Shown in pieces: positions 10,485 through 48,894 of a stretch of 64,000 nt of DNA; the stretch's first letter is position 1, and each line of letters opens with the position of its first letter. Both the position numbers and the translations under genes were made by a program. The stretch is from contig JAWOCK010000027.1 of NCBI GenBank assembly GCA_046483845.1, forward strand, positions 11,738 to 75,737, given 5' to 3'. The notes below the pieces were generated by a model. The model was given only the letters and a program-made list of their open reading frames with translations. It had not been told where the DNA came from and did not search any database. This DNA comes from Thermoplasmatota archaeon (lineage in GTDB: Archaea > Thermoplasmatota > Penumbrarchaeia > Penumbrarchaeales > Penumbrarchaeaceae).

Positions 10485-11531
10485 TCAAATTGCAAGGTCG
10501 TCTAGATCTTCACCTGATTCCAAAGCGAACTTTTTCAAAGCTTTCCTGCCCCCCTCTGATATTTTCTCAGGAGGATCTATATAGACCACAACGTACAGAT
10601 CTCCTTGATCACCGGAAACAGGATCTGGAAAACCTTCACCTTCTATGAGGAATTCGGTTTTGCTCCTTGTCCTTGGGGGGATCCTCAGAGTTCTCCTTCC
10701 TTCAAGGGTGTTGATCCTCTGTTTACCTCCGAAAACTGCCTTGGGAAAGGTTATCGAAGCTTCGATATAAAGGTCATTATCCACTCTTTTCATGTCTGGA
10801 AGTTCTTCGACCTGGACAGTAACAAGCAGGTCTCCTCTTGGACCGCTCCCCAAACCGTATCCGCCCTTTCCATTTAATTTGATGATAGCACCATCTTCTA
10901 CACCCGGAGGAAGAGAGATCTTAACGGTCTCATAACCATTTACAAGACCTATACCTGAGCAATTTGAACAGAATCTCTGCATAAGGATACCTCTTCCATT
11001 GCAGGTGGAACAGGTCACTCTTTGATTAACATACCCCTGAGGCGTCTGAACAGGTTGTAGAAGGGCTCCCGATCCCCTACATGTAGGGCAGGCTGAGACG
11101 GGGGTGTTGGGTTCTGCTCCGGAACCACCACAATAGCTACATCTGATAGGCATCTGAACATCTACATCTTTCTTCACACCGTTGAATGACTCTTGGAAAG
11201 ATATCTTGAGGTTCAATTTAGTATCAGAACCTTTTTGAGGAGCTATTTGGGGTCCGCTGTATACATAACCAGTTGACTGCTGAGGTTGTTGAGGGACACC
11301 ACCTCCTCCATTTCTTCTCATGAGTTCAAGGTCGTATTTTTCCCTTTTCAAAGGGTTTGAGAGGACTTCATAGGCATCTTTGACCTTTTTGAAATTAACA
11401 GCTGCATCATCATGGGTGTCCTTGTTAAGGTCTGGATGTAGGGTCTTTGCAAGTTTCCTGTAAGCCCTCTTTACCTCATCCTGAGTAGCGTCATCTTCTA
11501 TTCCCAGGATACTGTAATAATCATCGTCCAA
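10485..11531 (-). CDS. dnaJ: Chaperone DnaJ (Hsp40)
   Basis: J domain with HPD (DYYSILGI..AYRKLAKTLHPD), Gly-rich linker, four CxxCxGxG zinc-finger repeats, C-terminal substrate-binding domains. First start in frame is TTG. Confidence 0.92.
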   Translation of the reverse strand: MDDDYYSILGIEDDATQDEVKRAYRKLAKTLHPDLNKDTHDDAAVNFKKVKDAYEVLSNPLKREKYDLELMRRNGGGGVPQQPQQSTGYVYSGPQIAPQKGSDTKLNLKISFQESFNGVKKDVDVQMPIRCSYCGGSGAEPNTPVSACPTCRGSGALLQPVQTPQGYVNQRVTCSTCNGRGILMQRFCSNCSGIGLVNGYETVKISLPPGVEDGAIIKLNGKGGYGLGSGPRGDLLVTVQVEELPDMKRVDNDLYIEASITFPKAVFGGKQRINTLEGRRTLRIPPRTRSKTEFLIEGEGFPDPVSGDQGDLYVVVYIDPPEKISEGGRKALKKFALESGEDLDDLAI

Positions 11532-11639
11532 TCTATCACCTTTTGAACAGGAAGCATGTAAGCTTTCTTCCTATTTTATTGTATCCAAGTAGAAAATATA
11601 AAGGAAAGGGGGATCGAGATCCCCCTGATTTAATTTGCC

Positions 11640-13844
11640 TCATTCGGTTATCTTGAGCTTTGCCCCACAATCTGGACATTTTATCCTAAGAGGCCTCTCC
11701 GGAGAATCGATCTCGATCTCTTCACCACATTTCGGGCAATCAATGTACTCCGGTTCATATTCCTCTTCTTCCTCCTCAACCTCTTCTTCTTCCTTCTTCT
11801 TTGAGGTTTTTTTGGACTTTTTCTTTTTGGGTTTTTCCTTATCTTCTGATTTTGATTTCTTCTTCTTCTTTGGTTTTTCCCCTGTCTTTTCACCAGTTGA
11901 TTTGGATTTTTTCTTCTTTGGTTTTTCCTCTTCTTCCTCTTTTGGCTTGGATTTCTTCTTCTTCTTTGGAGAACCCTTGATGGTACCCTTGGCGCCACAA
12001 TGTGGGCAGGTGATCTTCAAAGGTCTCTTTGGGGAGGTGATCTTTATGGGTTTTTTACATTTCGGACATTTGATGGTGACGGGTTCGTAGCCCTCTTCAT
12101 CCTCCCCGGACACTCCTGAGTATGCATCAGCAAATAAGGATTGGGACCTTTCGGTGAGTTCATCGATGGCTTTCTTCAATTCCTTTACGTTCTTGCCTTC
12201 CATTTTTTCCTTTAGGTCCTTTAGAGCTTCCTTTGTTTCCTTAACCTTCTTCTTATCTAACTTCTCCTTAAGCTCTGCCATGGCCTTTTCTGTTGAATAG
12301 ACCAATGCATCAGCCTGGTTTCGAAGTTCGGCCAGCTTCTTCTTCTTCTTATCAAGCTTCTCATACTTCTCGGCATCATCTATCATCTTGGATACCTCAT
12401 CCTCTGTTACTCCAGAAGATGGCTGGATGGTGATCTTCTGCTCCTTTCCTGTTGCAAGGTCCTTGGCTGAAACATTGACAATACCATTTGCATCAATATC
12501 GAAAGTAACCTCTATCTGTGGTACACCCCGCGGTGCTGGAGGTATCCCTATCAAATGGAATTTACCTAATGATTTATTATCTGATGACATCTCCCTTTCT
12601 CCCTGCACGACATGGATCTCTACAGATGTTTGATTGTCCTGAGCAGTGGAGAATATCTGGTTCTTCCTGCAAGGTATGGTGGTATTCCGCGGTATCAGTT
12701 TCGAGGTCAGACCTCCTACTGTTTCAACACCAAGGGATAATGGTGTTACGTCCAATAGGAGTACATCTTTTACCTCACCTGTTAGAACACCACCCTGTAT
12801 TGCGGCACCTACAGCTACGCATTCATCGGGGTTTATCCCTTTGTTAGGAGCCTTCCCGAAGAATTCCTTGATAAAGTTCTGGACTGCGGGCATTCTTGTA
12901 GATCCACCCACCAATAGGATCTGATGGATGTCCTTTGGAGTGATGCCAGCATCCTTCAATGATCTTTTTGTAGGTCCCTTGGTCGCATCGATCAGGTCCT
13001 CTGTCAAAGATTCGAACTTGGCCCTTGTCAGAGTATAATCTATATGCTTGGGCCCATCCTCATCAGCAGCAATGTAGGGAAGATTAATGCTTGTATCAAG
13101 CCTAGATGATAGCTCTATCTTTGCTTTCTCAGACGCTTCCTTTAGTCTCTGCATTGCATTTTTGTCTTCTCTCAGACTGATATCCGTTTCATCCTCGAAT
13201 TTTTCTATCATCCAATCCATAATACGAGCATCAAAATCATCACCGCCCAATAGGTTGTTCCCTGAGGTTGCCTTCACCTCGAAAACACCTTCTCCTATAT
13301 CCAGGATAGATACATCGAAGGTACCTCCTCCTAGATCGAATACTAGGATGGTCTGTTCGATCTCCTGCTTATCCAGACCATATGCCAGCGAAGCAGCAGT
13401 TGGCTCATTTATTATCCTCAACACATCGAGACCGGATATTCTACCTGAATCCCTCGTAGCCTGACGTTGAGGATCCTCAAAATATGCTGGAACAGTGATG
13501 ACGGCCTTATCTATATCCTCACCCAGATATTCCTGGGCATCTTTTTTGAGCTTTCTTAAGATCATTGCTGATATCTCTTGAGGTGTGTAGATCTTTTCAT
13601 CTACTTTGACCTTGTATTTTGTACCCATTTTCCTTTTGATCGATGAAATCGTTCTTTCGGGATTGGTAACTGCTTGTCTTTTTGCCACATGACCAACAAG
13701 GACCTCACCATCTTCTGTAAATGCCACAACGGACGGCATAGTCCTAGTTCCCTCAGCCGTTGGAATAACGACAGGCTCACCACCCTCAAGGACTGCCATA
13801 GCTGAATAGGTAGTCCCCAGATCGATCCCTATTACCTTTGCCAT
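11640..13844 (-). CDS. dnaK: Chaperone DnaK (Hsp70) with ~130-aa C-terminal extension: two zinc-ribbon motifs flanking a poly-Lys/Glu low-complexity tract
   Basis: [14 protein letters not shown].. canonical Hsp70 NBD and SBD. Strong SD AAGGAGGAG upstream. C-terminal tail [27 protein letters not shown]...KKKKK...[27 protein letters not shown]. Confidence 0.95.
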
Positions 13845-14020: not shown

Positions 14021-14887
14021 TCACTCCTCATCCAATTCATCTACCTCATCAAGAACTTCGTCGATCTCCTCTATTTCGTCGATCTCTTCTATTTCACCGA
14101 TCTCGTCGACTTCTTCATCTCTCTCCTTCTTTTTCGACTTTTTCTTTCTTGGTTTCCCTCCCTTGGAAACCACGACCTTTGCCGGTCTCAATACGATTCC
14201 ATCCAATAGATAACCTTTGGACTCAACTCTTATAACAGTATTATCTGGAACGTCCTTCCTGTCCTTTATTTCAATGGCTTCATGGAAAGTTGGGTCGAAT
14301 CTTTCTTCCATTGGATCGACGATCTCCACATCATTGACCTCAAGGAGCTTGATGAGGCCTTTCTTTATTGACCCCACACCTTCATAGATCTTTTTCGCCT
14401 CGGAAGTACTTAATCTTTCTGCTTCCATCATTGCCCTGTCAAAATTATCCAACACTTCGATCAATCCCAGGATCAAATTCTTTGAACCCTGTTTGATTCG
14501 GCGTTTTACTTCATTATCTGTTCTCTTTTTAAAATTTTCAAAATCTTTTTGATTTCTGTTCAGTTTCTTTTCGTAAGCATTTGCCAATGCTATCTGCTTA
14601 TTTATATCCTCTTCGAGTTTCTCTTTATTCGATCTGAGATTTTCTATTTCGTCCTCCAACATTTCCAATTCATGTTCGTAACTTTTCTTTTCATCTTGAT
14701 ATTCTTTGAGCTCCTCCTTCAGTTTGGATATCTTCCCAAGGTAAATGGCCATCCTCCTCTTGACCCCTTCAGGTATAGGCGTCATCTTTGCCTTTTTTCC
14801 CGATCCAGCTTCTTTTGAAGTTTTCCTGTCCTTATTCTCATCTTCATCTTCCAATTCGAATTCCAAGTCATCTTCATCGGGATTCAT
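14021..14887 (-). CDS. grpE: Nucleotide exchange factor GrpE with acidic N-terminus and K-rich/acidic-repeat C-terminal tail
   Basis: GrpE core FENFKKR..LILGLIEVLDNFDRA..GYLLDGIVLRPAKVVVSK. ATG at 14887 preceded by GGTGGT. Tail KGGKPRKKKSKKKERDEEVDEIGEIEEIDEIEEIDE. Operon order grpE-dnaK-dnaJ. Confidence 0.85.
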   Translation of the reverse strand: MNPDEDDLEFELEDEDENKDRKTSKEAGSGKKAKMTPIPEGVKRRMAIYLGKISKLKEELKEYQDEKKSYEHELEMLEDEIENLRSNKEKLEEDINKQIALANAYEKKLNRNQKDFENFKKRTDNEVKRRIKQGSKNLILGLIEVLDNFDRAMMEAERLSTSEAKKIYEGVGSIKKGLIKLLEVNDVEIVDPMEERFDPTFHEAIEIKDRKDVPDNTVIRVESKGYLLDGIVLRPAKVVVSKGGKPRKKKSKKKERDEEVDEIGEIEEIDEIEEIDEVLDEVDELDEE

Positions 14888-19158: not shown

Positions 19159-19755
19159 ATGGATTCCTTAAAGGTCGCTGTGATAGGTCTGCAAGGGGAT
19201 GTCGAGGAACATATCAAAGCCTTTCAGAATGCTTTTTCAAAGCTTGGAATGAAAGGAGAGATCGTATGGGCCAGAAGGCCAGCGGACATGCTAGGCGTCG
19301 ATGGTGTCGTTCTTCCTGGCGGGGAATCAACGACCATATCCAAGCTGGTAACCCGTTTTGAACTCCGTGATATCATCAAGGCCATGGCATCGGAAGGCTC
19401 CCCCGTCCTGGGAACCTGCGCCGGCTGCGTTCTCCTTGCCAAAGAAGGTGATGAGCTTGTTCGGAGGACAGGGACGGAGCTCCTCGGCTTGATGGACATG
19501 GAGGTCAACAGGAACGCTTTCGGACCACAGAGGGAATCCTTCGAGGCCGATGTCAGAATAGAGAATATAGGAACCTATCCCGGCGTCTTCATTAGAGCAC
19601 CCTTGATAACGAAGGTGTGGGGATCCTGCAGGGCAATTGGCACATTGGGTGAGAAGATGGTCCTTGCGAGGCAGGATAACCTGCTTGCGGCAAGCTTCCA
19701 CCCGGAGCTTACCGAGGACATACGATTCCACGAGATGTTCATTGATATGTTCTAA
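19159..19755 (+). CDS. pdxT: Pyridoxal 5'-phosphate synthase glutaminase subunit PdxT
   Basis: VAVIGLQGDVEEH, LPGGESTT, catalytic GTCAGCV, FHPELT motifs of class I glutaminase PdxT/Pdx2. Confidence 0.9.
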   Translation: MDSLKVAVIGLQGDVEEHIKAFQNAFSKLGMKGEIVWARRPADMLGVDGVVLPGGESTTISKLVTRFELRDIIKAMASEGSPVLGTCAGCVLLAKEGDELVRRTGTELLGLMDMEVNRNAFGPQRESFEADVRIENIGTYPGVFIRAPLITKVWGSCRAIGTLGEKMVLARQDNLLAASFHPELTEDIRFHEMFIDMF

Positions 19756-22700
19756 CCCGTTGCGATAAGGGATATCCATCTGTTGGAGGACCCTGTATTT
19801 CTTGCCATATCCACCGCGTAGACCTCTATCTTCCACGGGACCGAGGTACTTGCCCATGCCGGGACGAGGAGATCGCCTTCGAAGAAGGATGTCTCGTTCC
19901 ATGACAGGGAGACGTTGACCGCCTCCGTCCTGTTCTCCATACACCTAAGGACCACGAAGACATCCGATATGGTCGGGAAAGCGGTCTGGTCCTCCAGTAC
20001 GTTGACGTGGACCGTATGGTATCTATCCACTTCCCAGTTCTCACCTTCGGCAGGACTGAGTATATCGATCTCAGGGCTCAACGTATCTATGACGGCTCCA
20101 AAAGAGGTCTCTCCCTCGTTGTGCAGATCGTCCACTATGATCGCGAGAATGGTAATGGGTCCCTCTGGTAATGGGTTGGCCAGGAGATCATACGTTCCTA
20201 TCCATTCATGCTCGTGTGTCCAGGGAGGCATCGGCTCGGCCATTTCCAAAGGCGTTACCCCACCATGATCGTCCAGTATCTCCACCATTATGGACACCGC
20301 AGTGGGATCCTCTGTCCAGACATAGACCTCGAAGTAATCATTGAAGAATGGGGGATCGCCGGTGGGGTCCGTCTCTATGACGAACTCCGGAGCGGTCCTG
20401 TCCACATCGATATCGAAGGTGAAATAGTCAGAGACCCTTCCATAGCTGTCCCGTGTTGAGATATTGAAATGCCATACATCCTCCGGAAGTTCGGAGAGGT
20501 TCAGATGCAGATCGTATATCTTCAGGTCCCCTTCGGTCCTGTTGAATATCGGATCGATGGTATACTCCTTCTGAGGTCCCGGCGGGATATCGTAATAGAT
20601 ATCAAAGAAAGAATCCACATGCATTGAACCGTTCACACCGATCTGGACCGTGGTGTTGGTGTTCCTCCTTTCCGGTATCGGAAGGAGGCTCTCGATGCTG
20701 GGGGGCACGGGATCCCAGAGTATATCGTCCCTGAACCACGGCCACGGTTCGAAATCATCGTAGACTATTCTGTAGAACAACTTATCATAGTCCCCCTTGG
20801 GGAGATCATCCAGAGAATGCCATTCTCCCAGAGGTATCTCGATGGTGCCTGTGGAATTGGTCGGTCCCTCTAACCTGATCTCTCCGTGTCCGTCACCTGG
20901 GTCAATGGTCGGTGGGACATCGATCCCTCCTATCCTCACACTCATTCCGGGATACAGCACCGCCCAGCTACCGGAGAAGTTCTCGTACCTCACAGGTTCC
21001 GGATCCCACATTATCTTCGGTCTGTCGAAGTTCCTCCAGACGGTGAAGTTCCAGGGATCTGTCCACGGAGTGTCGACCTCATCATTCTCCCATCTGTACC
21101 TGAGCTTCCACCACCAGGTACCGTTTGGAATGTCCTCCGGTATGGGCCAGGATGTGGTGTTCCACGGTAGCGTCCATTTATACCATGGATGAGCGAAGGT
21201 GGAGGTATTGTCGATCCAGAGTTCTATCCGCATCTCCTCTGTCAGGTTCTCCACCAACCATTCGATATATCTCGGGTCCGGGTCCCACATTATGTGTTCG
21301 TCGTCCGGGGGACCCATTGGTGTTATCACGGGTGGTTGCTTCATTGTGATCCTGAACCCTTCTGAGAATTTGAGGGACCCGTCGAGCCTCGTCTTTATAA
21401 TGATCACCTGCTGATATCCTTCCGGTATGTGGACCAGACCATCCTCACCCTTCTCCAGGGCAACGGTCTCGTATTCCCTGGAGCCGTCCTCCTTTATCTT
21501 GACGACAGTCAGCTGCCACCGCGATCTGTTGGTCTTTGGTTCGAAGGAGACCAAACCCGAGGTACCGTTCATTTCGTACTTGTTGATCCTCGAGCCATAC
21601 TGCTCGACCTGCTCGTCGTCGGTCACGGGATCATGACCGTTGAACTCGTGTTCGTTGTCGATGGCCGTGTTCTGGAAGTCCGGATCGCCCTTATACTGGG
21701 GGAACCTGTTCTCCAGCCTATAAAGGTTGAACTCGCTGAGAAGCTCCTCGAAGCTCATTCCCGTGGCCTCCTCGATCGCCTTTATTCCCGTGGTATCATT
21801 GCCGGTTCCCGGATTGTTTACAACTGCATTGTAGATATCCACCACGATATCCTCGCCGAACTTGTCGCTCAGGAACTTCATGAAAAGGAATGAGCCGGCG
21901 TAGTAGTGACCGGAATGCACGTAGGACCTGTTGTATGTACCGGGCCACTCCGTGAATATGTCATACCATGAATAATGATAGTAGTCATAGATGTTCAGAC
22001 TGCCTGCCGAATCCAGCTCTTCCTCAACTTCCTGCCATGTCTTGTTGAAGTTTTTCATGGCCGATATCCTGCCGATGTACTCAGCTGTTCCCTCGTCTAT
22101 GAAATTGTTCTTCCAGGGATTTATATGGGAGCTGCCATCGTCCCTTTTTGCGAACTGGAAGTTGTGGGTCATCTCGTGCTCGACGGTCTGTTTCGATGCA
22201 ACCTTGTTGGAACCAATGTCCACCTCTATCTCCCCGTTGGAATTGCATGCACCCGAATAGGTGCCGTTGGCGGTGATGGTGATCTTCACGAACGGGTCCC
22301 CGTTGCTGTCTGTGCCGGATGCCATTGCGTCCCCGAAGCCCATCTCCTTGAGAAGATTGTAGGTGAAGTTCAGGTATTCCTTTACATCATCGATAGTATC
22401 CTCATCCACTGAATGACCTGCCGGGATACCCACGGAGACATTTATATCGAGATATCTCCAGTCCTCACCCGTTTCGTTGACCTCTATCTTATTCTGCCTT
22501 CCGTTGACCAGATATGCATTCCAATCGTCATTGGGGCTCAGGTCCATCTTGATGATATTGTTCGACCCTGGTGATGAGGGACCAACGGTCCAGTAGGAAT
22601 GTTCATCATTATCAGTGCCCTGCAGAGAAATGCTTTCATTCTCTCCGGGTGCAGGAATATAATCATGTATGTTCCAGCCATCCCTTGGGGTGTCACCATT

Positions 22701-23426
22701 GCCGGTCCCCCATCCGACGAAGTCGATGAGATTGTCGCTCTTGTCGAAGATGGCAAGTTCGTCTCCGTCATCGGAAAGAACATCCTCGCCCATATCAAGG
22801 TAGACCTCGGCATTTCCATCCGAGCCATCCAGGTCGTCCGTACCATTTCCAGTATGGAACAGAATGAAACCGAACATCTCCAGACCGGTTACGGTAGGGA
22901 TCGTGAAGAGCGGTTCGTCGAATGTGGTGACCCTCCATCCCTCGGTGGTCCCGGGTCCGGTGCCGCGTATATAGACCTCGAACCATTCACCGGAAGGGTT
23001 CACCTCGGAGATAGAGGCCTGCAGCGGATTGGTGGATATCATGTCGTTACCGAGTCCATCGTAAGGGTCTATTTCCTCATCACCGATGTCATCTTTCTTT
23101 GAGTCATCCTCCTGGAGCATGATCACTATGCCGATACCAATGACCGATAGGATCATCAATGCCACTATTCCAATTGTGATGAGTTTCCTGCCCGGCTCTT
23201 CTTCATTGGATGGTCTGGAAAGTTCATCCTCTATTTCCTCTTCCGACTCCTCGTCCTCTAATTCTTCTTCCTCGAGGTCCTCCTCTTCCTCGTAGTCCTC
23301 ATCATCTTCTAGCTCTTCGTCCTCGAGGTCCTCTTCTTCCTCGATATCATATTCATCCTCATCAAGCTCTTCTTCTTCCAGTTCATCTTCTTTTTTCTTT
23401 TTCCCTTTCCTGGATTCCCCGGACAT
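19752..23426 (-). CDS. Type II membrane-anchored giant protein: acidic cytoplasmic N-tail, signal-anchor TM, lamin-tail-like domain, HExxH zinc-metallopeptidase-like domain, Trp-rich repeats
   Basis: N-terminus KGKKKKEDELEEEELDEDEYDIEEEED... (about 100 aa, >60% D/E). TM LITIGIVALMILSVIGIGIVIML. ISEVNPSGEWFEVYIRGTG resembles a lamin-tail domain. HEMTHNFQ....EGTAEY (HExxH + downstream Glu). W-rich segment WYKWTLPWNTTSWP..WWWKLRYRW. Convergent 4-bp overlap with pdxT. Confidence 0.6.
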   Translation of the reverse strand: MSGESRKGKKKKEDELEEEELDEDEYDIEEEEDLEDEELEDDEDYEEEEDLEEEELEDEESEEEIEDELSRPSNEEEPGRKLITIGIVALMILSVIGIGIVIMLQEDDSKKDDIGDEEIDPYDGLGNDMISTNPLQASISEVNPSGEWFEVYIRGTGPGTTEGWRVTTFDEPLFTIPTVTGLEMFGFILFHTGNGTDDLDGSDGNAEVYLDMGEDVLSDDGDELAIFDKSDNLIDFVGWGTGNGDTPRDGWNIHDYIPAPGENESISLQGTDNDEHSYWTVGPSSPGSNNIIKMDLSPNDDWNAYLVNGRQNKIEVNETGEDWRYLDINVSVGIPAGHSVDEDTIDDVKEYLNFTYNLLKEMGFGDAMASGTDSNGDPFVKITITANGTYSGACNSNGEIEVDIGSNKVASKQTVEHEMTHNFQFAKRDDGSSHINPWKNNFIDEGTAEYIGRISAMKNFNKTWQEVEEELDSAGSLNIYDYYHYSWYDIFTEWPGTYNRSYVHSGHYYAGSFLFMKFLSDKFGEDIVVDIYNAVVNNPGTGNDTTGIKAIEEATGMSFEELLSEFNLYRLENRFPQYKGDPDFQNTAIDNEHEFNGHDPVTDDEQVEQYGSRINKYEMNGTSGLVSFEPKTNRSRWQLTVVKIKEDGSREYETVALEKGEDGLVHIPEGYQQVIIIKTRLDGSLKFSEGFRITMKQPPVITPMGPPDDEHIMWDPDPRYIEWLVENLTEEMRIELWIDNTSTFAHPWYKWTLPWNTTSWPIPEDIPNGTWWWKLRYRWENDEVDTPWTDPWNFTVWRNFDRPKIMWDPEPVRYENFSGSWAVLYPGMSVRIGGIDVPPTIDPGDGHGEIRLEGPTNSTGTIEIPLGEWHSLDDLPKGDYDKLFYRIVYDDFEPWPWFRDDILWDPVPPSIESLLPIPERRNTNTTVQIGVNGSMHVDSFFDIYYDIPPGPQKEYTIDPIFNRTEGDLKIYDLHLNLSELPEDVWHFNISTRDSYGRVSDYFTFDIDVDRTAPEFVIETDPTGDPPFFNDYFEVYVWTEDPTAVSIMVEILDDHGGVTPLEMAEPMPPWTHEHEWIGTYDLLANPLPEGPITILAIIVDDLHNEGETSFGAVIDTLSPEIDILSPAEGENWEVDRYHTVHVNVLEDQTAFPTISDVFVVLRCMENRTEAVNVSLSWNETSFFEGDLLVPAWASTSVPWKIEVYAVDMARNTGSSNRWISLIATG

Positions 23427-42564: not shown

Positions 42565-45500
42565 ATGGCATCCATGGAACCTGCCGACCCCCGAACATGT
42601 GAACCCGAACCCGCTCAATCATATCAGTCGCGAGATTCAAATGACACCCTCTTCTCCGAAGAATTGTACAATCAGAATCTATCTGATGTTTCCGCTTGGG
42701 TCGAGCAGGCGGGAGGAGATTCTCAAAAGGCCTTTGCACGTGTTCTGATCGTCAACAACGGTCTATCGGCATTGCGTATCATTCAGGGGATCACATCCCT
42801 ATCCAACCTGATCTCCCAGGGTAAAGATGCTAACCTCATTCAAGCTGTGGCCATCGCCTCTGACGCAGATTGGGTTGGTGATTGTCCGGAAGATGCTATG
42901 CAGCGACCCAACTATTTAAAAGAACCCGATACAATAGTTGCCCGAATTCCCGGATCACGACCCAAGGACACCTATCAAAACCAGGATGAGGTAATTGCTA
43001 TCGCCCGAGAATACAGGTGCGATGCCATTGCTGTGGGTTGGGGGCACCTTGCTGAGAATTCCACCTTTGCCTCCCGCGTGGAGAAGGAGGGATTGATCTT
43101 CATCGGGCCACATGCAGAGGCGATGAGCCTGATGGGTGACAAGATCATGTCAAAGCTCATCATGGATAAGGCAGGGGTCCCGATGCTTCCCTGGAACGGA
43201 TCAAACATATCCCTCTCTGAGATCAGATCGGATGCAAAGGACCTGATCAAAGCCCGGGAAGAAGAGGAGGGCCCTCTTTCGGATACTGACAGATACGGCA
43301 TACTATTTGATCTGGCCTATGAACGGGTGGGAATAAAAAGCATTGAAACGGCCCGTTCAGTTATAAACTCAATAGACCTGCCCGTTGTCATCAAGGCCAC
43401 TGCAGGCGGAGGCGGTCGCGGTATTCGTTTCATCACAAATGACAAAGACCTAGAATCAGGATTGAATGCTGCTGTCTCCGAGGCATCAGCTGCATTCGGG
43501 AACGATACGGTCTTCATAGAAAAAGCAGCAGACCCTGGCTCGCGGCATGTGGAGGTCCAGATCCTGGCGGATACTTCTGGGACAGTGATAGCCCTCGGTG
43601 AGCGTGAATGTTCTATCCAGCGTCACAATCAGAAACTGATCGAGGAAAGCGGTGATGACATTCCCATAAGCGATGGGACCCGGCAGATCCTCAGAAGATC
43701 TGCCGTAGCTGCGGCAAAAGCTGCCAAATATGTGAATGCCGGAACCGTGGAATTCCTTGTTGATAAAGAGGGCAACCCATATTTCATGGAGATGAACACC
43801 AGGCTGCAGGTGGAACACATTGCCACGGAGGCAGTGTATCCCGGACTCGATCTTGTGGTAGAGCAGCTGAAAATTGCCATGGGGATCCCACTTGACCATG
43901 AATTGATATCATTAAGTGATTCCCTCACGACGGGAAAGCACAGTATTTCCGTTCGAATAACTGCTGAAAATCCCAATGCAGGTTTCAGTTCTCAAACCGG
44001 CACCATCGAATCACTCGACATTCCAAATCTGGGCCCAAACACACCTCGAGCATATTTCAGTTTCTCTCAGGGAGGAACCGTTCATTCCTTTGCGGACAGT
44101 CAGATCGGGCATGTGGTGAGCAGTGCACCAACCCGTGAGGTAGCAAGACAACATATGGTGGCATTTCTGAACAAATTACGCATCAAAGGTATCCTTACAA
44201 CCCTTCAATTCTCGTCTGCGATAATGCAGGATGCAGAGTATATTGACGGCACCGGCATCCATGTTAACTGGCTCAAGCAGAGGCTCGATGACGCTCGATC
44301 GAAGGTGGGCGCATACCTTGGGGGCTCAACCGTTAAACCCGAGCTGGGACTGGCGGCGGTTGCCATACTCGATTATCTCTTCGGGAAGGCAGAATCACAG
44401 AACAAGTTCCATGCCAATCTCTTATCCTCAAGGTCGATCCCTCCCAAACTCCTTGCGAACACAGGACTGACCCGTGTGAGATTCGGTGAACATCATTACA
44501 CTGTCATCGTTCGTGAGATAGCTGATGAGCGTTTTGAACTGATCCTTGGCAATGACCGGATCGTTGTCCGGTTCTGGGAACGTTTAGGTCCATCCCGTTT
44601 CATGATGGAGTACGCTGGTATGGTATACCAGATCCACCGGATAGATGAAACCTCCAGAACCCATATTGAAGTGGGCGGGCACACCTTCACCTTCGAGCGA
44701 GACCTTGACCCAGATGTATTTCGGGCACCTATGGCAGGAATTATTTCCTCTGTCGAGGTCGAGTCCGGGCAAACAGTTGGCTTGAAGGATACCTTATTTA
44801 CCATGGAAGCCATGAAAATGATCTCTTCCCTTGATTCTCCAAGGAATGCAACCATTGCAGAAGTTTATGTAAGTGCAGGTTCCGTTGTTGAAGTGGGAAC
44901 TCCGCTGCTCAAATTTTCAGAATCAGAGACTTCAGAATCGAAGAAGGGATCACCCTCCTCCGGAGCTGATACGGAAAAGAAAGGAACCCGTCTACATTTC
45001 AAGCATGATGTGACAGATCTGTCTTCCAGGCTTGAGAGAAAGTGGGCTGAGAATGGTGATCTCAAGATCTCCATAAATAATGACGATATCAGGACCTTGA
45101 TTGGAAATATCATGCGTGGTTATCAATATTCAAACCACTTTCTATACCTGCTGACAAAAGAGCTCACCGATATGAACGAACGGCTGGGTGACGAACAGTG
45201 GATATCTCTTGTCCGAGATACGATAGAAGCATTTTACAAGGATGAGCAATATTTCAAAGGGTCCACAACTCTAACAGAGGGACTATCCATTGCAGAAATG
45301 GAAGCTGGCATAACAGATGGTGATAAGTATGATATCGCCCGCTCCCACGGGAATTTACGTTCCAAGAAGATAGTGCTGCTAGAGTTACTTGAGCCCATTT
45401 CCTCAATGGATTTCGAATCCATTGTGCCCTATCTGAAAAAGCTGACAGAGCTGGGTTATTCATATAATTACCGCGATCTATCCACCCGTGCGGAGGAACT

Positions 45501-48500
45501 CATACATCTGATCCACCCACTCCACGAGAAACCCCTCGACCTTCATCAAGTAATGGATGATATAGTTGCAGCACACGAGTCGGGAGATACCTCTCTTCAG
45601 AATGGATTGATGAAAAATGTCATGGCGGCAACGGAATCAATGCTCTCTCAACTGATCGATTATCTTTTAACCGGTTCGGGATTTGCACGAAAGATAGCTG
45701 GAAAGCTGATCATCTTGCGTGCCTATAGACGCCATAGGAATCTGAGCTGTGAATATGAACATAAAAAGGACGGGAAACGGCTCTATGTATGGCGTTTCAA
45801 TGATGCTGATAATGGTAAGGACCGTATGGGTATAGTCAGCCTGGTTGAACATGGAGAGAATGTGATCCAGAGCCTGACCCGGATGTATGAGCGCCTTCAA
45901 CAGCTCTGGGTGGAATCTCCAGAACGTGCGGATCATTCGGGAGATGTTCTGGAACTGCTCATCCAATGGCCCCCTGATATAAAGAGCAGTGACGAACTGG
46001 CTCAATACTTGAGAGATATAGTGAACAAGGTCCTTGCAAATGAAGAACTAAGGCGCGTAACATTCGTTGTTCAAACCCCTCATGACCACATACCCGGTTT
46101 CTTCACATTCAGGCCTGATGGGGAGGAAAGCTGCTTGTATATTGAGGATGCGCTGAGCAGGAACCTTCATCCTTCCCTGGCTTACCTGCTTGATCTGAAA
46201 CAGCTTGAATCACTCAGATCGAACATTGTTAAACTACCATCTGCAGATCCTTTGATACATATCTTCCATCATCGTATACCGAATCCGCGGGGGGCGGAGC
46301 TGCCGGATATCGAGAACCGGATATTTGTTAGATGCGTGATAAGGAACTCCGAGATCACCATGGGTCCTGAAGGTTCTTCCTTCCCGGCGGCAGAAGAGGC
46401 GTTTGCCAGCTCGCTACGGCATCTGCGGGTCTCATATTCTGCAACTGGAGCCCGATCCCATAGTAATCAGATCTACCTGGCATTTGCAAAACCGATCAAA
46501 CTATCTTTTGAGGAGTATCAGAAGATCGTAAAACGAATGAACCGCCACGTGAGTGATTACGCTGATGTTGACCTGACCAGAACGGAGATACGCGGCCGTC
46601 TTGATTCCTGGCAGGCAACCGGTAAGAGCATCGATATGCTCCTGGTGGTGAATAATCCAACAGGATTGCTCACGGAGATGAAAGAATACGTTATAGACAC
46701 TTCTGTTATGAGCGGTGCCAAAAAGGTACAAATGCTCCTACCCTACAGTGAGTTTGTCAAGCAGCATGAAAAACAGGAATATACACCTTCTGAAGATCAA
46801 TGGATACCTTTCAGCGAGCTGATCAAACCGATGACCGCAGTGGACAAGAAGCGTGTTATCCGTCGTCAAAAAGGTAAGGTATACGTTTACGACAGACTCT
46901 CACTTCTTCGAAATGAGCTGGAATACATATGGTCCTCATCTGGAAAGGATAAACCTGATGATATACTGACCGTTCAGGAGCTGATAACCGACCCGGAAGG
47001 AGCTGTAGTTACCGTCGAACGGCCGCCGGGTAAGAATGATCTGTCAATTGTGGCATGGCGTGTCCGTATCAAGTCACCCGAGGCGGGATCTGGCCGGGAT
47101 CTGATCGTGGTTTCCGGGGATATGACACTCAAAGGCGGTTCGGTCTCCATGGAGGAGGACATTCTTTTTGCGGGAGCAGCCAGGATCGCCCGTGATGAAG
47201 GCATTCCGTTCGTATATTTCGCTGAAGGGAGCGGTGCTCGTATAGGCCTATCGACGATAGTTACCCAAAGGTTATCGTATGATGATGAAAAAGATGTGTT
47301 CTATGTTGACCGGAAAACATATTCTCTTTTGGAACCACTGGTAATCGGACATCGGGACGCGGAGAACACCTCGCGGTATATCATTACCTCGATCCTCGGA
47401 GGTTTGCCGGGTATAAGCATAGCAGAAGAGGATGAATATCTCTATGTTTCCGAAGCAACCTACAATCGGTTCAAAGATCGAATGACCGCACATCCGATCA
47501 CCGTCATGGTCGGCTCTGAAGAAAAGACACGTTGGGTGATCGATTCGATCGAAAAACAGTACCCTCTGATCAATTTCGAGAACCTCTCCGGTTCGGCGAT
47601 GATGGCAAGGGCTTGTTCGTTGACCTATCACAGTGTCCCCACGATGGCCGTCGTAACCGATACATGCACAGGTATCATCGCATATAATGTCCGTCTGTTG
47701 AAACGTATCATTCAAACCAGGAACTCGGAGATCATATTGACCGGATACAGAGCCTTGAACTCCCTCTATGGCGGCGATGATGTTTATTCCAGCAATCGTG
47801 AGCTTGGAGGGCCACATATCATGGGCCCGAATGGGCTGTCTCATCACATAGTAGACGATGAAGGTCAAGCATGTAAAACCGTTCTTTCCTGGCTTTCGGG
47901 CGTTCCGGTCAAGCGTGGATCTCCATCTCCCAAACTGGAAACGGAAGACCCGATCGAGCGGGACATTTCCGTTACACTCATAGGACCGGGCGGTCTTATC
48001 GAATCACCTCGTCCCGAGGCTGAACGACCTGTCCCCTATGATTCAATGGAGCTGGTCCGTACCATTTTCGATGAAGGTTCAACTCAGGAGGCCATGGAAG
48101 AATGGGGGAGCACCGTTCATGTGGGACGTGCAACCATTGGGGGTTATCCCATAGGTTTTATTTCAGTGGAGACCAGAACAGTCGAGAAGGTTGTGCCGGC
48201 CGATCCTTCAATTGAAGGGTCAGCACCTGTTGGGATCAACCAGTTTGGACAGGTATGGTATCCTGATTCTGCCTTCAAGACCTCCCAGTGGATACAGTTT
48301 ATGAAAAATGAACGCCGACCCCTTATCATCCTCCCCAACTGGCGTGGTTTTGCAGGTGGTAAGATCGATCTGTACGAGGAGATTGTTAAGTTCGGTGCCA
48401 TGATCGTTGATGAACTGGTATATTTCGACCTACCTGTTATCCTGTACATCCCTCCATATGCTGAACTGCGGGGAGGAGCCTGGGTGGTTATCGATCCGCA

Positions 48501-48894
48501 GATCAATCCTGACAAGATCGTCCTAATTGCTGATGAGCATGCGACCGGATCCATCCTTGAACCGTCTGGAATGGAGTCTGTTCCACTTATCCGGAGGCAG
48601 ATCAAGCGCGACATGATACAGCAGGATCCAACCCTGTCAAGATTATACGGAAACCGGACAAGATATGCCACGCAGATGGACCGTATCAAACAGATCGATC
48701 AGCAGATAGAGGAACGAGAGGCAGAGATCTGGCCGGAATATGTTAAAAAATGGACAAAGATCTTCCGGTTGCACAATACTGCAGAGCGGATGGGTGCTCT
48801 TGGGATCGCAGGGGAAGTAGTAGAGACGTCAAAGGCCCGTGAGGCGATCTTCAGAAATCTCATGAGTGGTCTGGAAAGGATCGACAATAGCTGA
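42565..48894 (+). CDS. acc: Eukaryote-type single-chain multidomain acetyl-CoA carboxylase (biotin carboxylase + BCCP + central region + carboxyltransferase), 2109 aa
   Basis: BC domain: ARVLIVNNGLSALRII, WGHLAENSTF, ATAGGGGRGIRF, HVEVQILADTSGTVIALGERECSIQRHNQKLIEE, NTRLQVEHIATE. BCCP: biotinyl-Lys motif EAMKM. CT domain: GGSVSMEEDILFAGAARIARDEGIPFVYFAEGSGARIGLS and GGAWVVIDPQINP. Domain order and length match eukaryotic ACC, not the bacterial multi-subunit type. Confidence 0.85.
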   Translation: MASMEPADPRTCEPEPAQSYQSRDSNDTLFSEELYNQNLSDVSAWVEQAGGDSQKAFARVLIVNNGLSALRIIQGITSLSNLISQGKDANLIQAVAIASDADWVGDCPEDAMQRPNYLKEPDTIVARIPGSRPKDTYQNQDEVIAIAREYRCDAIAVGWGHLAENSTFASRVEKEGLIFIGPHAEAMSLMGDKIMSKLIMDKAGVPMLPWNGSNISLSEIRSDAKDLIKAREEEEGPLSDTDRYGILFDLAYERVGIKSIETARSVINSIDLPVVIKATAGGGGRGIRFITNDKDLESGLNAAVSEASAAFGNDTVFIEKAADPGSRHVEVQILADTSGTVIALGERECSIQRHNQKLIEESGDDIPISDGTRQILRRSAVAAAKAAKYVNAGTVEFLVDKEGNPYFMEMNTRLQVEHIATEAVYPGLDLVVEQLKIAMGIPLDHELISLSDSLTTGKHSISVRITAENPNAGFSSQTGTIESLDIPNLGPNTPRAYFSFSQGGTVHSFADSQIGHVVSSAPTREVARQHMVAFLNKLRIKGILTTLQFSSAIMQDAEYIDGTGIHVNWLKQRLDDARSKVGAYLGGSTVKPELGLAAVAILDYLFGKAESQNKFHANLLSSRSIPPKLLANTGLTRVRFGEHHYTVIVREIADERFELILGNDRIVVRFWERLGPSRFMMEYAGMVYQIHRIDETSRTHIEVGGHTFTFERDLDPDVFRAPMAGIISSVEVESGQTVGLKDTLFTMEAMKMISSLDSPRNATIAEVYVSAGSVVEVGTPLLKFSESETSESKKGSPSSGADTEKKGTRLHFKHDVTDLSSRLERKWAENGDLKISINNDDIRTLIGNIMRGYQYSNHFLYLLTKELTDMNERLGDEQWISLVRDTIEAFYKDEQYFKGSTTLTEGLSIAEMEAGITDGDKYDIARSHGNLRSKKIVLLELLEPISSMDFESIVPYLKKLTELGYSYNYRDLSTRAEELIHLIHPLHEKPLDLHQVMDDIVAAHESGDTSLQNGLMKNVMAATESMLSQLIDYLLTGSGFARKIAGKLIILRAYRRHRNLSCEYEHKKDGKRLYVWRFNDADNGKDRMGIVSLVEHGENVIQSLTRMYERLQQLWVESPERADHSGDVLELLIQWPPDIKSSDELAQYLRDIVNKVLANEELRRVTFVVQTPHDHIPGFFTFRPDGEESCLYIEDALSRNLHPSLAYLLDLKQLESLRSNIVKLPSADPLIHIFHHRIPNPRGAELPDIENRIFVRCVIRNSEITMGPEGSSFPAAEEAFASSLRHLRVSYSATGARSHSNQIYLAFAKPIKLSFEEYQKIVKRMNRHVSDYADVDLTRTEIRGRLDSWQATGKSIDMLLVVNNPTGLLTEMKEYVIDTSVMSGAKKVQMLLPYSEFVKQHEKQEYTPSEDQWIPFSELIKPMTAVDKKRVIRRQKGKVYVYDRLSLLRNELEYIWSSSGKDKPDDILTVQELITDPEGAVVTVERPPGKNDLSIVAWRVRIKSPEAGSGRDLIVVSGDMTLKGGSVSMEEDILFAGAARIARDEGIPFVYFAEGSGARIGLSTIVTQRLSYDDEKDVFYVDRKTYSLLEPLVIGHRDAENTSRYIITSILGGLPGISIAEEDEYLYVSEATYNRFKDRMTAHPITVMVGSEEKTRWVIDSIEKQYPLINFENLSGSAMMARACSLTYHSVPTMAVVTDTCTGIIAYNVRLLKRIIQTRNSEIILTGYRALNSLYGGDDVYSSNRELGGPHIMGPNGLSHHIVDDEGQACKTVLSWLSGVPVKRGSPSPKLETEDPIERDISVTLIGPGGLIESPRPEAERPVPYDSMELVRTIFDEGSTQEAMEEWGSTVHVGRATIGGYPIGFISVETRTVEKVVPADPSIEGSAPVGINQFGQVWYPDSAFKTSQWIQFMKNERRPLIILPNWRGFAGGKIDLYEEIVKFGAMIVDELVYFDLPVILYIPPYAELRGGAWVVIDPQINPDKIVLIADEHATGSILEPSGMESVPLIRRQIKRDMIQQDPTLSRLYGNRTRYATQMDRIKQIDQQIEEREAEIWPEYVKKWTKIFRLHNTAERMGALGIAGEVVETSKAREAIFRNLMSGLERIDNS

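Follow-up and report, generated by a model that had tools for sequence, protein, structure and literature searches.

A predicted zinc-ribbon tail at the C-terminus of DnaK in Thermoplasmatota archaea

Why does a DnaK with an ordinary chaperone core continue, past the point where DnaK proteins normally end, for another 146 residues of cysteine-containing modules and charged sequence? This question is raised by the dnaK gene in a stretch of 64,000 nucleotides from a Thermoplasmatota archaeon (GenBank assembly GCA_046483845.1, contig JAWOCK010000027.1), which as a whole is referred to as the window hereafter. A sequence-only reading of the window had proposed that the gene encodes DnaK with a double zinc ribbon and a poly-lysine tract at its end. 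The canonical DnaK core is already known; what is new is a lineage-wide C-terminal architecture of DnaK, made from an uncharacterised family of zinc-ribbon tails. Literature searches that paired DnaK or Hsp70 with zinc ribbons, archaea or Thermoplasmatota brought up no account of a DnaK that is extended or bears such a ribbon, and two surveys of archaeal DnaK-DnaJ-GrpE (PMC3564930, PMC12874294) nowhere mention zinc or an extension.

The tail and its modules

The gene is a single open reading frame (ORF), free of stops and frame changes in the ORF list. The gene and the parts of its product are as follows.

11640..13844 (−): dnaK coding sequence, 734 aa; stop codon at 11640–11642; PF00012 E 2.5e-237
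12120..13844 (−): canonical Hsp70 core, aa 1–575, with the nucleotide-binding domain (NBD), the substrate-binding domain (SBD) and the helical lid
12081..12119 (−): acidic spacer, aa 576–588; remnant of the C-terminal motif of canonical DnaKs (VVDADYEV)
11976..12080 (−): zinc ribbon 1 (ZnR1), aa 589–623, CPKC...CPHC; net charge +10
11760..11975 (−): linker, a disordered polyampholyte, aa 624–695; 72% K/E/D in blocks; net charge +12
11643..11759 (−): zinc ribbon 2 (ZnR2), aa 696–734, CPKC...CPDC; net charge −4; end of the protein

Residues 1–575 are a canonical DnaK, and the Hsp70 core is unaltered. The identity proposed by the sequence-only reading was borne out by three profiles, all above their cutoffs: PF00012 (789.3 bits; cutoff 20.6) and the DnaK equivalogs NF001413 (924.3 bits; cutoff 648) and TIGR02350 (908.0 bits; cutoff 822.55). 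The Pfam and NCBIfam Hsp70 matches span residues 1–575/579, and the full-length AlphaFold2 (AF2) model has a folded NBD, a beta-SBD and lid helices at 481–578. After the tailed clusters described below, the next-best matches are the tail-less DnaKs of Firmicutes/Clostridia, about 610 aa long and 66–69% identical to the window core.

The position at which the tail begins can be read from the bacterial proteins. The closest bacterial DnaKs have a G/Q/A-rich stretch and then end in ...VVDADYEVKDDxK, and this end motif aligns with the archaeal DEEGYE-P and, in a more distant subclade, with DFDFELIDEEE. Thus, the ribbon was added exactly at the canonical DnaK end, and the G/Q/A stretch was lost. 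The proposal made from the sequence that the extension starts at the normal Hsp70 end agrees with this alignment. The proposed extent has to be corrected: the tail after residue 588 is 146 aa long instead of about 130 aa, and its DNA occupies 11640–12080, a boundary at 12060 cutting through the first CxxC. The window protein shares with canonical DnaK the full NBD-SBD-lid core, the grpE-dnaK-dnaJ operon and the vestigial (D/E)A(D/E)(Y/F)E(V) motif. It differs in that canonical proteins of about 600–620 aa finish with the G/Q/A-rich disordered end and the motif, whereas here the stretch is missing and 146 aa of ribbons and linkers are added; the added tails of relatives reach about 350 aa of zinc ribbons and charged linkers.

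Each module has two CxxC knuckles about 16 residues apart. Among the 43 module sequences from which the profile named A1 was built, the four cysteines are invariant and the R-P pair is nearly so, and the consensus is I-x-C-P-x-C-x3-I-x-V-x-S-x2-R-P-x2-I-x-C-P-x-C-G-x-K-G-T-L-K. Both ZnR1 and ZnR2 match it, with the low-complexity linker between the two copies and the last copy ending the protein. The profile scored 66–71 bits against them (i-E 3e-19 for ZnR1 and 1.2e-20 for ZnR2), and over the 64-kb window it found nothing better than E 0.1 apart from these modules. Two Cys4 zinc ribbons flanking a K/E tract are therefore present, as had been read from the sequence; the ribbons are clearly homologous, and "near-identical" was too strong a word for 24 identical positions out of 40.

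The 72-aa linker contains 32 K and 20 D/E, encoded by AAG (18), AAA (14), GAA (13) and GAG (6), and the net charge of the whole tail is +18. Tandem Repeats Finder detected an imperfect tandem repeat of 45–48 nt in 2.2–2.6 copies at 11847–11969. It was also considered whether K/E runs are a genome-wide habit; this was rejected, as only 3 of the 66 long ORFs in the window have such low-complexity runs (those for DnaK, GrpE and one large protein).

Structure prediction, which the sequence-only reading had suggested for the tail, gave two four-stranded ribbons and a disordered linker. On the module alignment, AF2 produced a four-stranded, two-knuckle zinc ribbon with a mean pLDDT (predicted local distance difference test) of 82.6. 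In the full-length model, the ribbons at 589–622 and 699–732 are folded (pLDDT ~70–85; about 70–80 in ZnR1 and about 80 in ZnR2), the linker at 625–695 is disordered (25–29), and the spacer at 577–587 stays below 50; this model informs on the domain boundaries, its contacts between ribbons and SBD not being usable. The best fold matches of the module are zinc ribbons throughout, and the modules are inferred to bind zinc.

The module was then compared with known ribbons. Foldseek against the PDB returned generic zinc ribbons alone, none of them significant: LysW (TM-score 0.73; entries 3wwn/3wwl, root-mean-square deviation 1.2–1.3 Å), the ZitP zinc finger 2NB9 and HVO_2753. In a profile search of PDB sequences, the top match was LysW of T. 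kodakarensis (5k2m_E, E 8e-7), followed by eS27 and Rpo12 with one knuckle each (E 3e-4 to 2e-3) and, lower, by AgmX/GltJ (E 0.03) and ZitP (E 0.3). In Pfam and NCBIfam, the tail lies near the thresholds of the generic ribbon families Zn_ribbon_4, Zn_ribbon_3, DUF7560, LysW-like and MJ0042-type. TIGR02098 (MJ0042-type) gave 29.3 bits with the tail alone (cutoff 20.9), its best stretch covering model positions 1–15 of 38; PF13717 (Zn_ribbon_4; cutoff 30.3) gave 31.0 bits with the tail alone and 23.9 with the whole protein, and several generic ribbon families behaved similarly. A DnaJ-type zinc centre was rejected: no knuckle of the tail (e.g. CPDCGAKL) fits CXXCXGXG, and the neighbouring DnaJ has its own PF00684.

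These matches raise the idea that the terminal ribbon, with its C-terminal glutamate, is an amino-group carrier domain like LysW/ArgW. LysW is the best match among solved structures, and the two share a two-knuckle, four-strand ribbon of about 35 residues. The window protein ends in KITE, and every one of the 16 clusters in its two-module subclade has a final Glu (P0003–P0018; KITE, KVLE, KIKE, KIEE, KVVE), the codon for it in the window being 11643–11645; LysW carriers also use a C-terminal Glu. However, LysW stands alone as a protein of some 54 aa that ends in an EDWGE carrier tail, and its gene lies in lysine or arginine biosynthesis clusters. The DnaK tail has no EDWGE and stays far below the LysW/ArgW family cutoffs (TIGR01206, 21.7–26.1 bits vs 53.2; NF041070, 20.6–25.2 vs 75), its gene neighbours are grpE, dnaJ and a traB-like gene with no lysX/Z/Y/J genes nearby, and the other tailed-DnaK subclades end in lysine, in the form GTLK(K). 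The shared glutamate is probably a coincidence, and a carrier role is very improbable, to the point of being effectively excluded.

Distribution in the lineage and selection

A protein identical to that of the window (P0003) is encoded in another NCBI assembly, GCA_964459425.1 (contig CAYWLX010000004.1). The full-length search found about 40 further DnaK clusters, 690–956 aa long, in NCBI, JGI, ENA and Logan assemblies; their core identity is 60–95%, and two to three module copies are present in each of the complete ones. Clusters bearing organism names are assigned to a Thermoplasmatota, Thermoplasmata or Euryarchaeota archaeon, and the proteins are named just "molecular chaperone DnaK" in the databases. 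In a neighbour-joining tree built from core residues 1–575 only, all 41 ribbon-bearing sequences form one clade, whose sole ribbon-less leaf is a truncated partial sequence. This monophyly on the core indicates one ancient fusion that was retained afterwards, and the question whether the extension is lineage-wide is thus answered in the affirmative. A scan of the genome collection with the full-length DnaK gave at least 80 loci; the 80 listed all encode tail-less bacterial DnaKs with 55–67% identity.

The same data bear on the suspicion that a missed stop, a frameshift or a chimeric assembly had joined a separate small zinc-ribbon gene to dnaK; a missed stop or another sequencing or assembly error was what the sequence-only reading had named as its own possible refutation. 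In favour of an artefact, there are free-standing genes that resemble the tail (P0001), and the repeats in the linker DNA could be mis-assembled. Nevertheless, four data sources together supply about 40 independent clusters in which the same continuous fusion appears, with in-frame indels only, and the second assembly contains the identical protein; the clade is monophyletic on the core; and ZnR1 lies in frame, under strong purifying selection, 13 residues past the lid. The chance of an artefact is therefore negligible, and this explanation, too, is effectively excluded.

Selection was examined by codon-aligning the window gene with those of four relatives (loci L082, L089, L090 and L091); synonymous sites were saturated throughout. 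The nonsynonymous divergence (dN) was 0.04–0.08 in the Hsp70 core, 0–0.06 in ZnR1, 0.08–0.37 in ZnR2 and 0.30–0.63 in the linker, where the indels are in-frame only. ZnR1 retains 95–100% amino acid identity, and one pair is 100% identical there at a synonymous divergence (dS) of 1.7. ZnR1 is as constrained as the ATPase core, the tail is under purifying selection, and the constraint acts on the protein and not on an overlapping nucleotide feature. Two further ORFs, one of 151 aa at 11635–12090 (+) and one in an alternative frame at 11681–11998 (−), were dismissed as arising from the low complexity of the coding sequence, because the constraint is at the protein level and dS is saturated.

The charge pattern of the tail differs among the subclades. 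In the window subclade (16 clusters), the linker is 52–74 aa long and 63–78% charged, and in all 16 ZnR1 has a charge of +8/+9 and ZnR2 of −6 to 0; in other subclades, all of the two or three modules are basic. The first module is at +7 or more in 33 of the 41 tailed clusters.

The copies within one tail appear to have a common history. In DnaK tails, E-E-Y-x-P precedes each module (Y in 72% of the copies), and this prefix is absent from the module elsewhere. Because the Y-x-P prefix is found with the DnaK modules and is absent in other proteins, the later copies most likely arose, as judged from the sequences, by duplication of "motif plus ribbon" inside the DnaK tail. The sequence-only reading had overlooked that the prefix is a vestige of the DnaK C-terminal motif, and also that the module belongs to a widespread, promiscuous family.

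The long three-module DnaK tails (P0024, P0028–P0034, P0038) and the free-standing P0001 (L092, 232–972) share a conserved short linear motif in the long second linker, E-(E/I)-(V/L/I)-(F/Y)-HEPR-(K/Q)-GIW-(Q/A/E)-PSDKE-(F/L/M)-(K/S)-F, embedded in otherwise drifting low-complexity sequence. The window protein does not have it. A binding peptide and a pseudo-substrate of the SBD are possible roles for this HEPR/GIW motif.

Other carriers of the module and the possible role of the tail

Among 1.84 billion representative proteins, profile A1 matched 1688 (E ≤ 1e-3), of which 165 reached E ≤ 1e-10. The matching proteins are 69 to 3418 aa long. A word-indexed search with the tail alone gave two weak matches, K/E low-complexity words swamping the candidates, and one with the module alignment gave seven very short proteins only. 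Within the window and the fetched DnaK loci, DnaK is the only bearer of the module.

The architecture of the carriers was examined in the best 150 of the 1688 matches. They mostly have two to three copies, with a maximum of seven, joined by P/A/E/K-rich linkers. The last module stops no more than 10 residues short of the C-terminus (median 0) in 84% of the 146 best-scoring carriers, and the net charge is positive in 298 of 370 modules (mean +3.8). Transmembrane helices, predicted by a simple hydropathy scan, were found in 80 of the 102 carriers of at least 250 aa, and solely upstream of the modules in 77. Pfam searches of the cluster representatives revealed PKD, Ig-like (Big_5, Big_7, FixG_C) and fn3 ectodomains, or polytopic membrane cores. 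The usual layout is thus a signal peptide, an ectodomain, a transmembrane helix and a cytoplasmic tail with tandem ribbons. Cytosolic carriers are a minority, comprising a response-regulator receiver protein and an Mrr-nuclease/STAND/pentapeptide protein, and nucleic-acid enzymes are rare among the inspected carriers (one Mrr-like/STAND protein and one HhH membrane protein).

The carriers with names or readable contexts are archaeal (named Thermoplasmata and Euryarchaeota metagenome-assembled genomes). The Euryarchaeota genome GCA_016874675.1 encodes two adjacent paralogous membrane proteins (L093, 6915–8798 and 10001–12763), each ending in three to four modules. In several copies of these paralogues, G-(A/P)-G-P replaces the S-x-x-R-P loop, which is a high-GC variant of the family. 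Small proteins made of modules and charged linkers alone also exist. One of them, the tail-like, free-standing P0001, is closely similar to the long tails of DnaK, and its gene has non-coding DNA upstream; the module is accordingly an autonomous unit.

On this basis, we tentatively favour the reading that the tail, taken to be a real, translated and selected part of the protein, is a docking or tethering appendage, which may bring DnaK to the inner, cytoplasmic side of the membrane. A docking role is suggested by the unchanged core, the autonomy of the ribbons, the spacer-like evolution of the leash and the presence of the same beads at the C-termini of hundreds of unrelated proteins. Recruitment to the membrane face is favoured for two reasons: in most carriers the module lies in the cytoplasm close to the membrane, and the tail of DnaK has a strong positive charge. 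The occurrence of the module mostly on surface-protein tails and hardly on nucleic-acid enzymes points to membrane docking more than to a ribosome- or DNA-specific role. In the proposed mechanism, the two ribbons would be independently folding Cys4 beads on a disordered K/E-rich leash of about 70 residues, and the tail would take no part in the ATPase/substrate cycle. The basic ZnR1 beside the lid and the polycationic leash would hold DnaK at the target of the module, which could be anionic head-groups, homologous surface-protein tails, or a shared receptor at the cytoplasmic face of the membrane. The outcome would be a higher local concentration of the chaperone where very large secreted and membrane proteins are made and handled.

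There are precedents for ribbons that dock. The ribbon of AgmX/GltJ, on a bitopic membrane protein, is reportedly a protein-docking element. The zinc finger of ZitP binds the polar scaffold PopZ (PMC5182065). ZitP of Caulobacter (PDB 2NB9) and AgmX/GltJ of Myxococcus (PDB 7ZOK) resemble the module carriers in having a small cytoplasmic Cys4 CPxCG ribbon on a bitopic membrane protein, near low-complexity linkers. In contrast to the DnaK tail modules, which are C-terminal, tandem and archaeal and have a distinctive S-x-x-R-P loop and G-x-K-G-T-L-K end, those ribbons are N-terminal, single and bacterial, and their fold and sequence matches to the module are weak and not significant (E 0.03–0.9).

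Several points weigh against recruitment to the membrane. The membrane bias of the carriers reveals the usual location of the module but not its binding partner; moreover, the statistics come from the best 150 of the 1688 matches, summed scores favour multi-module proteins, and the helices come from hydropathy only. ZnR1 is nearly invariant, whereas the modules of membrane proteins vary, so the DnaK copy could have a different, highly conserved partner; the ribosome, GrpE/DnaJ and DnaK's own lid are candidates. The strong positive charge would suit RNA or DNA binding equally well. For every member of the family, docking is proposed from sequence and prediction.

One of these points, the charge, leads to an unlikely alternative, in which the tail, through its basic ribbon and poly-lysine leash, attaches to rRNA, ribosomes or DNA and makes DnaK a ribosome- or nucleoid-associated Hsp70. 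Yeast Ssb is seated on the ribosome by basic C-terminal residues. A ribosome tether would be of use in archaea lacking trigger factor. A tether of this kind, or a zinc-dependent regulator, was also what the sequence-only reading had guessed; the polycationic charge fits the tether (+18 for the tail, +10 for ZnR1, +12 for the linker, and a basic first module in most tailed clusters), and the finding that carriers are mostly surface-protein tails does not. The near-invariance of ZnR1 suits a very conserved partner such as rRNA, the ribbons of ribosomal eS27 and RNA-polymerase Rpo12 give weak, partial matches, and a gene for the nascent-polypeptide-associated complex (NAC) lies about 4 kb downstream with conserved synteny. 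However, the ribosomal-ribbon matches are limited to one knuckle, ZnR2 is not basic in the window subclade, NAC is outside the operon, and about 75% of the inspected carriers are membrane proteins with ectodomains.

The other guess, regulation by zinc, can be put in the form of a switch like Ruc or Hsp33: under oxidative or metal stress, the ribbons would lose their zinc and unfold, so that a client- or self-binding segment became exposed on the foldase. Ribbon strands such as IKIT and LKIT, flanked by K/R, would resemble DnaK-binding peptides, by the motifs known for these, if they were unfolded. Ruc (Rv0991c) of M. tuberculosis consists of a zinc ribbon and a disordered tail; oxidation makes it a holdase whose clients are passed to DnaK, with which it physically associates, and it co-occurs with proteostasis genes (PMC7448276). 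The layout of a Cys4 zinc centre adjoining long hydrophilic disorder, with a functional and physical link to DnaK, is common to Ruc/Hsp33 and the DnaK tail. Ruc is, however, a separate bacterial protein with an N-terminal ribbon and no detectable homology, and here the element is fused to DnaK and its module occurs on many non-chaperones. Membership in the Ruc/FmdB type was rejected (PF09723, 20.9–23.6 bits vs 34.4; TIGR02605, 12.2 vs 31.3). A chaperone-specific switch does not predict a module widespread on surface-protein tails, response-regulator and STAND proteins, and the purely charged linker is devoid of the hydrophobic patches expected of a holdase surface. We regard such a switch as improbable.

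Returning to the docking reading, a bolder form of it can be considered, in which the module is the address tag of an unrecognised targeting system of the Thermoplasmatota type, recruiting the lineage's only DnaK to the tails of tagged, often giant surface proteins or to a common receptor. The zinc sites might also place such a system under the control of metals or redox state. This form is speculative and, in our estimate, rather doubtful; if it is true, it would mean a dedicated membrane-coupled Hsp70 for the biogenesis or quality control of archaeal envelope proteins.

The operon, its neighbours and the meaning of the tail

The genes around dnaK that need to be considered are as follows.

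14021..14887 (−): grpE, 288 aa from ATG, upstream of dnaK; PF01025 E 1.4e-38
10485..11531 (−): dnaJ, 348 aa, downstream of dnaK; PF00226, PF00684, PF01556
6959..7300 (−): NAC gene, about 4 kb downstream of dnaJ; kept in L082, L089, L090 and L091
4065..5066 (+): 333-aa multi-zinc-ribbon protein (DZR, Zn_Ribbon_1 and a C-terminal ChsH2-type ribbon); synteny kept in relatives

The order grpE-dnaK-dnaJ on one strand is kept in five related loci. DnaJ is ordinary, with a J domain, the CXXCXGXG zinc centre and a C-terminal domain. GrpE has charged appendages: its acidic N-terminal motif, M-x-PDEDDLEFELE..., is followed by a variable K-rich stretch and is conserved in relatives, and its C-terminal extension consists of a K-block (GGKPRKKKSKKKE) and then an acidic amphipathic tail (EIEEIDEIEEIDEVLDEVDELDEE). 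Relatives with such appendages are encoded at L082 8723–9799, L089 8814–9782, L090 8629–9867 and L091 8863–9825. Electrostatic pairing between these extensions and the basic parts of the DnaK tail, the ribbon and the linker, is possible.

A further explanation of the tail concerns this pairing. The basic ZnR1 would associate with the acidic ZnR2, in cis or in trans, or with the acidic tail of GrpE, and thereby control the oligomerisation of DnaK or the recruitment of the nucleotide-exchange factor. Consistent with this are the charges of ZnR1 (+8/+9) and ZnR2 (−6 to 0) in all 16 clusters of the window subclade, the presence in all close relatives of an operon GrpE with the K-block, the acidic E/D/I/L tail and the acidic N-terminal motif, and the confinement of charged low-complexity runs in the window to DnaK, GrpE and one large protein. 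On the other hand, the charge complementarity is not general, the modules of other subclades being all basic, and the occurrence of the module on hundreds of unrelated proteins is left unexplained. We give little credence to this explanation, either as self-association or as co-chaperone coupling.

Some other features of the neighbourhood were also recorded. A perfect 8-bp G+C-rich hairpin (AGGGGGAT CGAG ATCCCCCT) is located at 11607–11626, 14 nt past the dnaK stop codon within the dnaK-dnaJ spacer (11532–11639), and is followed on the coding strand by a T-rich run; it may be a terminator or attenuator that sets the DnaK:DnaJ ratio. In all close relatives, a syntenic block comprises the genes for a radical-SAM protein, grpE, dnaK, dnaJ, a TraB-like protein, a CarboxypepD_reg membrane protein, a CxxCxxCC protein, a 138-aa protein and NAC. 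The 333-aa multi-zinc-ribbon protein is not of the DnaK-tail module type (module profile E 0.14). Two very large ORFs occur in the window, at 19752–23426 (−; 1224 aa) and at 42565–48894 (+; 2109 aa), both without the module; the 1224-aa protein has a weak lamin-tail-domain match and K/E low-complexity runs. Giant proteins of this kind bear the module in related genomes.

Finally, the tail can be placed among the known ways of directing an Hsp70. An Hsp70 is normally guided to the place where it works by a separate J-protein or by a short motif at its end. Among targeted Hsp70s with C-terminal appendages, the EEVD motif of the eukaryotic ones recruits TPR co-chaperones, and Ssb is ribosome-bound. 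The tail resembles these cases in being a C-terminal add-on that positions, or finds partners for, an otherwise generic Hsp70; it differs in chemistry, folded metal-binding domains being predicted here, and in lineage, and there is no sequence relationship. A prokaryotic DnaK to which folded metal-binding domains are permanently fused, under strong selection while a deep group of archaea diversified, would represent a separate way of targeting a chaperone. Canonical DnaK of the bacterial type also occurs in other archaea that acquired it by transfer. The tie to a family of surface-protein tails would offer a handle on the role for which the horizontally acquired archaeal DnaK was recruited, and on how uncultured archaea arrange the cytoplasmic side of their envelope. 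As the module is autonomous and only about 35 aa long, it would be easily tested biochemically.

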